Virus record (IMG/VR): IMGVR_UViG_3300033233_001970 | DNA: 64,000 bases | From: a virus | Lineage: Duplodnaviria; Caudoviricetes | Strand: one strand, 5' to 3' | In this document: positions 13,695-61,027 of the stretch, piece after piece | How positions within the stretch are numbered: the first letter of the stretch is position 1 | Layout: every line of letters begins with the position of its first letter | Made by a program: the position numbers and the translations under genes | The notes under the pieces: generated by a model | Told to the model about the DNA's origin: nothing | The model's input: the letters and a program-made list of their open reading frames with translations, nothing else | Database searches by the model: none

Positions 13695-13997
13695 CTATTT
13701 TTCATCGCGAAGCGTCTGGTACGCCGCCCACGACAAGACGCCTACCTCGACGGCGCCCGTCGCGGCAACCGTGTAGTAAATGAGCTCTTTTCCGCGAAGT
13801 CCGGCAATAAACAGCCCTCCCGCGACAAGGGCTCCACGGCAAATCATCGAGCCCACGACGCGCGCGACGTCAACGTAGAGCTCGTGTTTGCCCTGCATGA
13901 GATCAATGGCGGTGCTTCCCGAAGGAAGACCTGGTTTGCAAACGAGATCGCTGTTTGCCAAAGAAGGATTTCGCGCGCGTGCGCGACGGCGCCTCAT
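13695..13997 (-). CDS. membrane protein with N-terminal RNP tag
   Basis: MRRRRARARNP...; two hydrophobic helices. Confidence 0.65.
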   Translation of the reverse strand: MRRRRARARNPSLANSDLVCKPGLPSGSTAIDLMQGKHELYVDVARVVGSMICRGALVAGGLFIAGLRGKELIYYTVAATGAVEVGVLSWAAYQTLRDEK

Positions 13998-14464
13998 GAT
14001 TTGCACCCAACTCCGTTAACGATCTCGATTTTCCACCACGGCGGGTACCGTTCGCTGTCGATGCGACGCATCATGGCGTCGATCGTTCTTCGCGGAACGC
14101 CGTGAAGACCGCGCGACGCTGCCGTTTCCGGGTCGCACCGCACGCGGATCACTTTCGACATGTACCCAAACGCCGCCGCGAGCGCCATGTAGGGAGCGAT
14201 CTCGACGGTCGACGTGTTCGTGTTGTCGACGACCACCACATGAATGCCGGACTCGATGGCGTCCAGAAAATTACGAAGGCATTCGGCGTGCGCTTCGCCT
14301 AGTTTGGATACGTCGAATTTGTATCCTTGAGGCGTTTCGAAGAAATGATCGGCGGACACGACACGCGTGCGATGCCCTTGCCCCTTGGCCGCCGCCGCGA
14401 TTTGTTTCGCGAGCGTGCTTTTGCCGGAGCCGGAGACGCCTTGCATGACGATGACTTCTTTCAC
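13994..14464 (-). CDS. P-loop kinase (AAA_33 / N4BP2-like polynucleotide kinase)
   Basis: Walker A GVSGSGKST; SADHFF; VVVDNTN. Confidence 0.85.
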   Translation of the reverse strand: MKEVIVMQGVSGSGKSTLAKQIAAAAKGQGHRTRVVSADHFFETPQGYKFDVSKLGEAHAECLRNFLDAIESGIHVVVVDNTNTSTVEIAPYMALAAAFGYMSKVIRVRCDPETAASRGLHGVPRRTIDAMMRRIDSERYPPWWKIEIVNGVGCKS

Positions 14465-14489
14465 GGACGAGACCTTTCGGCGGAGTATG

Positions 14490-15116
14490 TCATGGAAGTC
14501 GAACTGCTTTTTCTTCGGCTTTCGTCAGCACGACAGCCGGAAGTGTCTTAACGCCCATCCGAATCGCTTTGCCGATACGGTGCCATCCGTCGATTGGTAG
14601 AGCGCCGTACTTCGTCACGATGACGATGAGTGGAACGCGAAGTTTGATTACCTGATCTTCGACCGGAAACTCGAGATCGCGGTCAACTCGTTTCCAATCG
14701 ATGCCGACGAGAGGAGCAAGCGGTCGCAGATCGATAACCTTGAAGGTGACGAGCTTGCGCTCCGGCTTGCTCGCCAGGATCATCTTGGCTTTGCCGATGT
14801 TCCAAGCGTCCTGGCCAAACCGAAAATACTCATGCGAATGCTCGGTCGCGTTCCAGTCGGCAGGATCCCAGCGCTGAGCAGGGTTTTGAGTCACGGTATT
14901 TCTCGTCGCAAGGAGTCCGATGAGCACGCCTGTGCCACCGCCGACAAGAATGGACGAAAGAGCGTGTCCCAGGATGCCCTTGCTCTTGTCTGGACCGCCG
15001 TACTCGTCTGAAAACGACGCGAAGCCGCCCGCAACGACGCCTCCGGCCATCGCTAGGACGGCGCCCACGCCTGCCCAGACGCGTCCCGTAGGGTTTTCCA
15101 TGGCTTCGGATGTCAT
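14490..15116 (-). CDS. membrane-anchored ParB/Srx-like domain protein
   Basis: ENP + 2 TM + QNP + domain containing PIDGWHR. Confidence 0.6.
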   Translation of the reverse strand: MTSEAMENPTGRVWAGVGAVLAMAGGVVAGGFASFSDEYGGPDKSKGILGHALSSILVGGGTGVLIGLLATRNTVTQNPAQRWDPADWNATEHSHEYFRFGQDAWNIGKAKMILASKPERKLVTFKVIDLRPLAPLVGIDWKRVDRDLEFPVEDQVIKLRVPLIVIVTKYGALPIDGWHRIGKAIRMGVKTLPAVVLTKAEEKAVRLP

Positions 15117-58361: not shown

Positions 58362-59132
58362 CTACTCGTCGCCCGTATCGGGCTCGTGCCGAACTTCATG
58401 ACCCGTCGGCAAGGACGGATTCGTGTCCGGTGCGCCCACCACTTCGCCGGTTGCCGCCTCGGGCACTTGTCCGTACGCTCCGGGGTGCACCCAGTTCGTC
58501 AGTCCTGTTGTGACCGACGGCAAAATCTTACGTATCGCGTTTGCGTAGTCAGCGACGTTCGCCTCCTCGGCCGCGTTGAGCGGCAGCGGTCTTTTTCCAC
58601 AAACTCTCGGATGCGGCATCCCTTTCGCCGCTTCGGCAGCCGTGGGATGGAAGCCGCCGAAATAGCATTCTTCCAAATAGAGCGTCTGCGCGTACGTTTC
58701 CGGCGAGCATGCCAGATCGTCGAACATGCGACGTGCGCCTCGAATGCCTGCGCGAATCATGTACGCGGCACCTGCGGCATCAGTAGGCCCTGCGAAGAAC
58801 CAAACTTTGAACGCACCCGTATTTGGATCCGAATCTCCGCGAATTGTACCGATACTGTTCGAGCGGTGCTCTTCTCCCCACGTCCCGTCGGGATAGAGCC
58901 ACATTCCGACTTTCAAATCGCCCGAGGCGAACGCGGCGCGCTCCGCATCGTTGAGCGCGCGAAGGTTGCAAGCTCCCCAATTGCAGGAATGATCCCAAGC
59001 ATCTCCGCAATTCGTTTCGTGCTCAGCCTGAGCAAGAACGATGTAAACAGCGTTCGGATTCGGTGGCGGACCGCCGGTTGCGATGACCCATCCGGCCCAA
59101 AGCGAATTTGCTTTTTGCTCCCAGCGGCTCAT
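58362..59132 (-). CDS. lysozyme-fold muramidase/glucosaminidase-like protein
   Basis: IVLAQAEHETNCG...NWG...Y. Confidence 0.5.
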   Translation of the reverse strand: MSRWEQKANSLWAGWVIATGGPPPNPNAVYIVLAQAEHETNCGDAWDHSCNWGACNLRALNDAERAAFASGDLKVGMWLYPDGTWGEEHRSNSIGTIRGDSDPNTGAFKVWFFAGPTDAAGAAYMIRAGIRGARRMFDDLACSPETYAQTLYLEECYFGGFHPTAAEAAKGMPHPRVCGKRPLPLNAAEEANVADYANAIRKILPSVTTGLTNWVHPGAYGQVPEAATGEVVGAPDTNPSLPTGHEVRHEPDTGDE

Positions 59133-59770
59133 CACGTCCCCTTGAACGCTGCAACCGGAGCGCTTCCCAGAAAATCGGGTTGACTCATGTCGTAATCGAT
59201 CACGATTCCTGGCGCGACAATAGTGTTTCCAGGCCAGGCTTGAACGAGTTGGTACCCGCGATGATCGACGTTGGGGACTTGTCCACCACTTCTCCAATAT
59301 CGCGCGATAGTCAAGTTGTTGTAGAGCTGCGACGACGTGAGCTGAACACCAGGCTCGAAATACCCGCCAAGCGCGCTCCCATACATTCCTCCGCTTACCG
59401 CGCCTTGGTACCAGGCGTTGCAATACGCGATGGCGACGTCGGCTGAGCACGGATTGAGATCAAACCAAAGACACGCACCAGGCGGATACCCGATGGCAAG
59501 AGCGGCATGTGCGGCCGTGACGCCGTCAGCGTGTCCCGTGTCTGCGCTCCATCCCGATTTGCGCGCGAACTGAACCAACATGATCCCTTGGCCCGTTGAC
59601 GTGAGGGCGTCGAGCTCCGCCGCCGTAATGCTTGGCGGTGAGCTCCCGTTCGTAACGTAGCGAACCCCGAACTTGAACCCGAGCGCAGCGAGCGTTTTCG
59701 CTTTCGCCGTATCTAATGTTTCTGACGTGTCCCAGCCCCACGCGTTGCTCAGTCCCTTCGGTACGTACAT
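59132..59770 (-). CDS. DUF1906 (Rv2525c/GH25-like) glycoside hydrolase
   Basis: GWDT...GFKFGVRY...GHADG..A...IGYP.G..LWFD. Confidence 0.8.
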   Translation of the reverse strand: MYVPKGLSNAWGWDTSETLDTAKAKTLAALGFKFGVRYVTNGSSPPSITAAELDALTSTGQGIMLVQFARKSGWSADTGHADGVTAAHAALAIGYPPGACLWFDLNPCSADVAIAYCNAWYQGAVSGGMYGSALGGYFEPGVQLTSSQLYNNLTIARYWRSGGQVPNVDHRGYQLVQAWPGNTIVAPGIVIDYDMSQPDFLGSAPVAAFKGT

Positions 59771-59830
59771 GATCGAAGCCTATCATGTTTCGATCCGGCA
59801 ACGATTTACGTTGCGTGATACCATCGCCGC
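59771..59830. promoter_or_regulatory. divergent pair of extended -10 promoters
   Basis: TGA-TACCAT-N6-ATG (+, 59816-59833) and TGA-TAGGCT-N6-ATG (-, 59785-59768). Confidence 0.7.
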
Positions 59831-61027
59831 ATGGCGTGGATCGACATCTCCGCTTCCGGACTTTTGAAGGACGGCGGCGTGTACCAAATCGGCATCGTCA
59901 CATCTCCCACGTGGACCGTCGACATCGTCAAGACAAAGTTCGAGTCCGCCCCTCCTGGTCTTCCGGGTGGCGCCTTCAGCATCGATTCGGTTACGCCGGG
60001 ATCTTCAAGCGGTACCGTCAAAAGCTGGAAATTCCTCGGCACGTGGCACGGTGCGCCCGTAGTCGTAAGTCGGAAGCCTGCGGACACGCCGGACGTGCAG
60101 TACGCCGCCGTCTTCGAACAGGTGCCCGACCCTCCGCCTCCTCCGCCGAAGCCCAATGCGGAGTCCGACACGTCACTTCCCGTCGCCGGAGGCAGTTCGA
60201 AGTCATGGCCCGTGGTGCTCGGGCTTCTCGCGTTGGGAGGGCTCCTGGGCGGCGGAACGTATTTTTTCCTGAAACAAAAAGCGTACGCGACGAGCAATCC
60301 GAAACGCGACTATCCTTACATCTCTTCTCCAAGCGGTAGGTACATTCTGTCACGAGACGGAAAAATCGTGACGCGCGGTACCGAACAAGAAATATGGAAG
60401 TACCTGCACACCACGCACGGCTACAGCGTCGAGCACGCAATCAAATACGAAGGCTACAAAATACAGCCCGATTTGACGCTCCCGCCGAAGCGTAATCCTG
60501 TCGAGCCCTTCGAATACGAGCGTTACCAGCATGGTGGCGTTGACGTCGAGATCAGTCTGAGTCGTCTCGACCCATGTACCAAGTATCCCGAAATGCGCAA
60601 AGCTCTGGGCGATCTCGCTTGTCCAGGTGATTTGTATTACGGGCGAGCCATTTCGCCTACGGGTCACGAGCTCGTGGTGACTGCACGAACATCGACGGGT
60701 GCTCGCCGCATGATCGAAGCCGAGGTCGATCGACGTTGGCTCGGATCGCGCCATCTCGCGAATCCCGTTCGTTACGAAACAACGTTCGACCACCACGGGG
60801 TTCCCGTTCACGTTCACCGTGAAGACATCGACGGTCGGGCCACGTACTGCGCCGACTACCGCGCTGTCGAAATGACTCTTCCTGGCTCTGGCGGCGTCGT
60901 GTGTGGTCCCGACAAGTCTGAAGCCATGAACGAGGCCAAAAGACGTATCGACGCGCTCGGGTGGCGCAGTCGAACCATGGCGAGTCGGGCGCCGCGATTT
61001 CGAACACGTTCACGATCAGGATATTGA
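59831..61027 (+). CDS. modular membrane protein with three NP-linked C-terminal domains
   Basis: Poly-Pro linker, TM, TSNP, KRNP, LANP. Confidence 0.8.
   Translation: MAWIDISASGLLKDGGVYQIGIVTSPTWTVDIVKTKFESAPPGLPGGAFSIDSVTPGSSSGTVKSWKFLGTWHGAPVVVSRKPADTPDVQYAAVFEQVPDPPPPPPKPNAESDTSLPVAGGSSKSWPVVLGLLALGGLLGGGTYFFLKQKAYATSNPKRDYPYISSPSGRYILSRDGKIVTRGTEQEIWKYLHTTHGYSVEHAIKYEGYKIQPDLTLPPKRNPVEPFEYERYQHGGVDVEISLSRLDPCTKYPEMRKALGDLACPGDLYYGRAISPTGHELVVTARTSTGARRMIEAEVDRRWLGSRHLANPVRYETTFDHHGVPVHVHREDIDGRATYCADYRAVEMTLPGSGGVVCGPDKSEAMNEAKRRIDALGWRSRTMASRAPRFRTRSRSGY

Follow-up and report, generated by a model that had tools for sequence, protein, structure and literature searches.

The 64,000-nucleotide stretch analyzed here (hereafter the window; Caudoviricetes, IMG/VR record IMGVR_UViG_3300033233_001970, part of a 246-kb contig) encodes proteins in which the dipeptide Asn-Pro (NP) occurs far more often than composition predicts, and in which NP is found preferentially at N-termini, upstream of transmembrane (TM) helices and at the joins of recombining modules, where it is conserved. 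A preliminary description, made from the sequence alone, had proposed that NP is a shared signal for maturation cleavage or virion targeting. The non-random and conserved placement of NP stood up to analysis; the cleavage and targeting part is unsupported, as we found no protease, extended site or virion link. We favor a structural role for NP as an Asx-Pro cap or hinge that is carried by shuffled modules and membrane anchors, an assignment that we regard as an even call.

Genes were predicted with a codon-usage caller, which yielded 99 genes in the window (G+C 55–60%), and the identical caller was applied to all controls. Across the window, 93 NP dipeptides were observed against 40.6 expected from composition (z = 8.2), which places NP at rank 1 of 400 dipeptides. 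Between 13.7 and 61 kb we counted 86 NP against 32.3 expected (2.66-fold), spread over 47 of the 64 called genes; the preliminary figure of ~50 motifs in ~30 genes had captured the abundance but was an undercount. NP shows no excess in the genes at 1–13.6 kb (5 vs 5.3 expected) or in three fibre-like paralogues (2 vs about 4.5).

The enrichment is specific with respect to both reading frame and adjacency. Of the six reading frames, only codon frame 0 on the sense strand had more AAYCC than expected (86 vs 31), the remaining five being at or below expectation, which rules out a DNA-level motif. Gapped N-x(1-5)-P pairs were near 1.0 (range 0.75–1.26); the excess is therefore specific to Asn and Pro in direct succession, and a locally Asn- and Pro-rich composition is ruled out as its source. 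Among the dipeptide counts, SP, TP and DP were not enriched. A special AAT-CCN codon pair was likewise rejected, since every amino acid takes a T-ending codon before Pro. This codon-context bias was seen in all called genes: all two- and four-fold families change to their T-ending codon when a Pro codon follows (Asp GAT 89% vs 40% elsewhere; Ala GCT 91% vs 36%), a preference that avoids C followed by CC.

Four 50-kb genomes, processed like the window, served as controls, and NP was in excess in all of them, with observed/expected ratios of 1.26 for Pseudomonas phage PaBG, 1.42 for Ralstonia phage RSL1, 1.44 for E. coli K-12 and 1.80 for Salmonella phage Arash, where NP is also the first-ranked dipeptide (pooled 1.48; 161/109). 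Within the 13.7–61 kb region, 32 of the 86 NP sites sit in six genes with a repeated module of ~100 amino acids. When these genes were removed, 54 NP remained against 26 expected (2.06-fold), an excess of about 1.4-fold over the 1.48 baseline (p about 0.01), and masking of all BLAST-detectable paralogous segments left 57 against 25.6 (2.22-fold). Baseline and this one module family together make up about half of the raw excess.

No close DNA match to the window was present among 50,697 phage records, and no IMG/VR relatives of it were found. Among the relative loci that were compared, L001, L003, L009, L010 and L011 pooled to a 2.17-fold NP excess (gene calling failed on L009, which adds no sites to this pool), and L012, a 53.9-kb JGI relative, reached 2.41-fold; three further loci, made up mostly of small genes, pooled to 1.49-fold. 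These differences indicate that the excess tracks a class of genes, those for modular, membrane-associated orphan proteins, and is not a property of the lineage as a whole.

The residues around NP distinguish the window from the controls. NPG was absent (0/93 sites vs 8.3 expected), whereas three controls, which favor NPG turns, contained 14 in 131 sites; Val or Ile directly followed NP at 25 of 93 sites (11.5 expected), with controls at or under expectation. Pro was located two to four residues past NP at 34 sites (16 expected), and Arg or Lys occupied position −1 or −2 at 36 (19 expected). With respect to position, NP fell within the first 14 residues in 14 of the 64 genes, where the NP rate of the region itself predicts 5 and the four controls had 1, 4, 1 and 1 such genes. 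In the window, 11 NPs lay within 18 residues on the upstream side of a predicted TM helix (4.1 by permutation), and in the relatives 12 (4.7), as opposed to 3 (2.2) in the controls; enrichment in the flank downstream of TM helices was not significant. Homology blocks, defined as high-scoring segment pairs against paralogues and relatives, began at NP in 17 of 54 cases vs 6.2 by permutation, so that NP frequency at such boundaries does exceed the expected value; the broader assertion that NP sits exactly between domains could be substantiated, via homology breakpoints, only for part of the sites. Both residues were conserved at 20 of the 24 sites that could be aligned to relatives (best alignments, 38–68% identity), where the conservation of lone Asn (40%) and lone Pro (59%) predicts 23% for the pair (p 1e-9), and at 6 of 8 sites in non-module proteins (p 0.004).

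The seams between shuffled units are as follows.

60212..61024 (plus): seam region of gene 59831, TM-KQKAYATS-NP-unit A, KR-NP-unit B, LA-NP-unit C (A 60296-60493; B 60494-60760; C 60761-61024)
44055..44399 (plus): seam of gene 43482, TM-MTRTRSS-NP, then an 87-residue unit ending AA-NP
57589..57699 (minus): seam of gene 56800-58359, TM-HARRSQFAYASE-NP
15716..15727 (minus): internal KK-NP seam of gene 15113-16324

Gene 59831 is ordered as an N-domain, poly-Pro, a TM helix and units A, B and C, and each unit recurs in a different setting: unit A in P0048, where NP flanks it at either end and the next domain is a different one; unit B in P0049, ahead of NP-TM-SGNH; and unit C in P0050, immediately after TM-x8-NP. 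The AlphaFold2 model of 59831, computed from four sequences, was too poor to place NP in the fold (predicted local distance difference test score, pLDDT, 42.6). The 87-residue unit of 43482 matches residues 76-162 of P0023 at 70% identity; NP precedes it in P0023 as well, and its downstream NP is not conserved there. The unit that follows SENP in 56800 is fused behind another N-terminus in L011, with NP kept, and stands alone in L012 (14034-14468), where it lacks NP and starts MAARSVYVI. In L011, the C-terminal 200 residues of 15113 past KK-NP are encoded by a gene of their own, behind the leader MNVIPRFRRVVQ-NP. Most stand-alone homologues retain a short leader and NP instead of starting at the module. 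Gene 56800 encodes a four-part membrane protein comprising an N-terminal region, a TM helix, a small beta unit and a Pro/Arg/Glu-rich linker with a zincin tail; its N-terminal GFSAGG resembles, by eye, an esterase-type GxSxG motif, and the tail is a weak SprT-like zincin region with HELAH. The TM-SENP arrangement that had been reported for this protein is present, but the SprT assignment is weak (E 0.0018) and the matching region lies about 180 residues past SENP.

The repeated module comprises ~100 amino acids and occurs in about nine copies in six genes (20348, 29193, 30308, 31993, 32961 and 51723).

20471..20854 (plus): copy in gene 20348-20857, directly after a TM helix (TM-NQPKS-NP)
29217..29516 (plus): N-terminal copy in gene 29193-30311, leader MRRRS-NP
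30563..31516 (plus): three tandem copies in gene 30308-31519, each opening x-NP-[YC]TP
32452..32841 (plus): copy in gene 31993-32862, protein end ...ARPNPSK
32872..33518 (plus): two copies in gene 32859/32961-34001
51747..52073 (plus): N-terminal copy in gene 51723-53285, which reads module, CENP, TM, CHAP, DUF192

Each copy has three conserved NP positions, in NP[YW]TP at its start and in RNPNP before a strand. A profile search of 1.84 billion representatives returned only 44 matching clusters, and 34 of 34 full-length matches open with NP[YW]TP, whether a leader, a TM helix or a further module precedes them. The AlphaFold2 model of the copy at 51747..52073 (pLDDT 88.9) predicts a hairpin, one strand, a helix and two more strands, with NPRNPNP as coil between helix 59-76 and strand 84-87 (local pLDDT >90) and its last Pro immediately before the strand. 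A fold search of the PDB and the ESM Atlas gave only generic alpha/beta matches, none of them convincing. The module also carries two conserved Cys and is without a Pfam family; it looks like an undescribed domain family limited to this phage group. At 32872 (plus), an ATG opens a 45-codon frame (32872-33010) that encodes a perfect module start (MRPNPYTPPSQLWPRYEF...). This first-copy arm, MRPNPYTPP... (32872-32960), is in the +1 frame relative to the remainder of gene 32859/32961-34001, and lengthening of the A4 run at 32948-32951 by a single A would bring it into frame with the rest of the module copy. The run is identical in three assemblies, so the frameshift is real in the DNA; no canonical slippery heptamer was found at 32872-33010, and the copy may be either decayed or expressed through an unusual frameshift.

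The NP-TM anchors and N-terminal leaders are listed below.

18801..18905 (minus): (E)NP-x4-12-Gly/Ala-rich TM anchor, MFDDE-NP-ISPPVKT-TM-SRPKA
18290-18394, 19260-19364, 15012-15116 and 53715-53825 (minus): further (E)NP-TM anchors
19721-19813, 51013-51108 and 52059-52175 (plus): further (E)NP-TM anchors
46702..46809 (plus), second copy 47146-47253: NP-x9-TM start shared by the paralogues 46645 and 47083
16292..16324 (minus): leader MNTVPRYRR-NP, N-terminus of gene 15113-16324
16822-16851 (minus): paralogous leader MNAIPRYR-NP of gene 16321-16851, on a different domain
18044..18058 (minus): leader MRKNP of the RadC-like protein
24005-24019, 48047-48058 and 50524-50538: other basic leaders, MRRNP, MRNP and MRKNP

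The NPs that precede TM helices mostly take the form (E)NP-x4-12, behind which come a Gly/Ala-rich helix and then a basic flank, in units that are mostly N-terminal or central in their proteins. Three relatives keep the NP of the 46645/47083 pair, at a distance of 6-8 residues from the N-terminus. Leaders of the type MNx[VI]PR[YF]RR..NP are found on three domains, and for the RadC relative in L012 an in-frame MAPRRNP precedes the called start. Every example quoted in the preliminary description was located: MRKNP (17435-18058, minus; 50524), MRRNP (24005), MRNP (48047), MRPNP (ATG 32872), PRYRRNP (15113-16324, minus), PRYRNP (16321-16851, minus), MFDDENP (18399 and 18915, minus), LENP-TM-SGNH (19424), CENP-TM-CHAP-DUF192 (51723), SSNP/AANP/VANP (43482) and TSNP/KRNP/LANP (59831). 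The small proteins of one family, at 18071-19364 (minus) and 56395-56817 (plus), have a short acidic N-tail and a Gly/Ala-rich TM helix, then an RPKA-type basic flank, a Pro/Thr/Ala-rich linker and variable C-domains, a layout that recalls Pf3-coat-like N-out insertion; the member at 56395 is without NP, EMSPP replacing ENPISPP. NP also occurs in basic C-terminal tails (…SSKKNPNP-stop, 34929-35291, minus; …ARPNPSK-stop, 31993-32862, plus). The publicly called RadC of L012 covers only an internal part (1023-1199, minus; 138 aa), and an upstream in-frame MAPRRNPTERMGPSEL... matches the N-terminus of the window RadC; the sequence suggests that the public start is probably too far downstream, or the gene split.

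Asn-Pro is used at the start of helices and strands as an Asx-Pro turn or N-cap. The window resembles this usage in that NP opens a strand, a helix or an arm, in that a general NP excess exists in 4/4 control genomes, in the frequent Val or Ile after NP, and, in the module model, in the predicted position of NPRNPNP directly before a strand. It differs in that NP reaches 2.1–2.7-fold compared to about 1.5-fold in the controls, in the absence of NPG, in the tie of the sites to module starts and the upstream TM flank, and in the lack of enrichment of Asp-, Ser- and Thr-Pro. We infer a capping or hinge role, in which NP would be a conserved Asx-Pro cap or kink with which Gly/Ala-rich membrane anchors begin, and likewise the small, independently folding modules that this phage lineage duplicates and shuffles. 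The Asn would cap the backbone and the Pro would fix the chain, such that the preceding segment ends and the next strand, or an extended NP-x-x-P arm, is set up; X-Pro bonds also withstand most proteases. A module that brings its own start cap could be attached to a short leader with basic residues, to a membrane helix or to a further module, and NP would consequently mark N-termini, helix flanks and seams. The high count would then be the total of the ordinary, proteome-wide NP excess, about nine module copies with three conserved NP each, around twelve NP-TM anchors and a small number of leader families, and no cleavage would be required. If NP is merely a cap or hinge, it would still be a practical predictor of module boundaries and anchor starts in a near-orphan lineage, and the comparisons document unusually free domain shuffling among the small membrane proteins of a huge phage.

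Several observations weigh against a capping role. A cap would entail a hydrogen bond from the Asn side chain to the backbone NH two residues further along, which no structure shows, and a simple cap should tolerate Asp, Ser and Thr, yet SP, TP and DP are unenriched. Outside the module genes, hydrophobicity does not differ between the upstream and downstream sides of NP, and many sites are therefore not clear linker-to-domain transitions. The recurrence of MR[KR]NP at N-termini has no obvious structural reason, the motif being kept in the RadC relative and not in the relatives of 48047 and 50524. The N-terminal NP[YW]TP arm is nearly invariant yet of low confidence in the module model (about 59), and would, on that model, fit a binding or processing peptide equally well as a cap.

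Possible, although we think it rather unlikely, is that basic-x-Asn-Pro constitutes a genuine signal for processing or docking, not described before, in several groups of uncultured phages, with juxtamembrane and inter-module NP either cut or recognized by one common partner. Separate working proteins would thereby arise from membrane-anchored, multi-module precursors, the cut being made by Asn cyclisation or by a phage peptidase, and the signal would represent a new maturation code common to many uncultured phages.

In its narrower form, NP would be a cleavage site that releases modules from membrane anchors and from each other, either by Asn side-chain autoproteolysis, as in RsgI, reovirus mu1 and FlhB, or through a peptidase of the phage, for which the SprT-like zincin tail of 56800 and the CHAP domain of 51723 would be candidates. 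We consider this improbable. The anti-sigma factor RsgI autoproteolyses at a conserved juxtamembrane Asn-Pro, and N42-P43 of reovirus and aquareovirus is cited as precedent in the same paper (PMC10328401). RsgI is a single-pass membrane protein whose conserved NP, a few residues past the TM helix, occupies the turn that joins the first two strands of a beta-rich domain, and the order of a TM helix, 8-12 residues, NP and a strand in 59831 (for which the model reached a pLDDT of only 42.6), 43482, 56800 and 20348 is reminiscent of it. Cleavage would also suit the location of NP at the seams of shuffled units, the strong conservation of both residues, the presence of a zincin-like HExxH region and the one stand-alone homologue, L012 14034-14468, that begins right past the NP position. 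However, known Asn-Pro autocleavage requires a dedicated fold, and the downstream units here are diverse, mutually unrelated and match no such family: these proteins and their units gave no Pfam match at E values as high as 1, be it to the N-terminal anti-sigma domain or to the periplasmic domain of RsgI, a sigma factor is not encoded nearby, and most NP-TM cases place NP before the helix, with no significant enrichment downstream of it. Moreover, NP is predicted inside a confidently folded loop of the module, it occurs 3-5 residues from N-termini and at C-terminal ends, where a cut achieves nothing, and most stand-alone homologues have a leader and NP, not a Met-Pro start. Neither an extended site nor a link to a protease was found. 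The cleavage or packaging reading is thus unproven and, on balance, disfavored.

Other systems that contain Asn-Pro agree less well. The NPTH motif of FlhB/YscU is absent (0/93), there is no type III secretion context, and no export-gate Pfam domain was found in about 59 proteins scanned; 2A 'NPGP' skipping peptides share Asn-Pro, but with 0/93 NPG the consensus D-x-E-x-NPG-P does not occur and there is no 2A context; and the single NP[QK]T in the window is internal, unlike the sorting signal NP[QK]T[NGS] of the sortase B type, which is C-terminal and stands ahead of a TM helix and basic tail. In T4- and phiKZ-type phages there are capsid targeting and prohead-protease processing, which cuts head proteins after Glu at S/A/G-x-E or L/I-x-E. 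Short terminal peptides on many phage proteins are common to both cases, and some window sites read E-NP, but ENP sites conform to S/A/G-x-E only at chance (4/13 vs about 3.2 by composition; hand count), and the NP proteins of the window carry TM helices. Neither head genes nor a prohead protease were seen in the window. For the polyvalent proteins of phages and conjugative elements, Iyer et al. (2017, PMC5512222) proposed processing by inference, and a term search of that paper turned up no NP site. Polyvalent proteins share with the window the chaining of unrelated small domains in varying order, and a RadC and a zincin-like peptidase are found in the neighborhood; the description of 2-15 unrelated domains with variable architecture applies to 59831, and likewise to 51723, 56800, 43482 and 15113. 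Polyvalent proteins are marked by effector domains (anti-restriction, DNA-processing, MPTase zincin) that enter along with the DNA, and in this respect only the weak SprT-like match in 56800 (E 0.0018) and the stand-alone RadC were seen here; the proteins differ in being 150-520 aa long and mostly membrane-anchored, with no anti-restriction or DNA-processing domains recognized.

We give little credence to basic-x-NP as a short docking tag for one shared partner in virion packaging, membrane insertion or chaperoning, which would act wherever it is exposed, at the N-terminus, the C-terminus or in a linker. Such a tag would account for Arg or Lys at −1 or −2 in 36 sites vs 19, for the same leader on unrelated domains (MNx[VI]PR[YF]RR..NP on three, MR[KR]NP on RadC and two others), for the C-terminal KKNPNP and NPSK ends, and for a nearly invariant but poorly ordered NP[YW]TP arm. 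Yet 47 of 64 genes with NP are too many and too varied for a single cargo class, relatives do not retain the leaders of 48047 and 50524, and the recognizable virion-type fibre genes are without NP. A two-residue motif with loose flanks, for which no partner was identified, is too loose and too widespread to favor.

That nothing specific is involved, only a universal NP excess of proteins together with paralogy, noticed because NP is easily seen, could draw on the control ratios of 1.26–1.80, on the top rank of NP in phage Arash, on the 32 of 86 sites in six module genes with a remainder only about 1.4-fold over 1.48 (p about 0.01), and on the three further relative loci at 1.49, but appears unlikely given a context unlike that of the controls (no NPG; NP[VI]), N-terminal, pre-TM and block-start biases not seen in them, and an NP conservation that far exceeds that of lone Asn and lone Pro. 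The earlier statement that this is not a described system is fair for NP as a seam; a part of what it referred to is ordinary NP excess and paralogy.

The NP-rich proteins gave almost no Pfam or PHROGs matches; the Pfam scan covered about 59 proteins, including nearly all NP-carrying genes at 13.7–61 kb. Recognized genes, by Pfam/PHROGs except where indicated, are the following.

Gene 13994: AAA_33 kinase
Gene 17435 (17435-18058, minus): RadC, stand-alone
Gene 19424: SGNH
Gene 26038: radical-SAM-like protein, 32% identity to a Salmonella phage Arash gene
Gene 28423: PTH2
Gene 51723 (51723-53285, plus): CHAP and DUF192
Gene 53352: CmpB-like protein
Gene 56800 (56800-58359, minus): weak SprT-like tail, under the family cut-off

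The three fibre-like paralogues (12123-13280, 37033-39381 and 39576-41252, minus) have an N-terminal part common to all and are among the few large window proteins without an NP excess. Within the larger pair, 37033 and 39576, 23 of the first 30 residues are identical (M[VR]RHRDESIRRPEIDL...).

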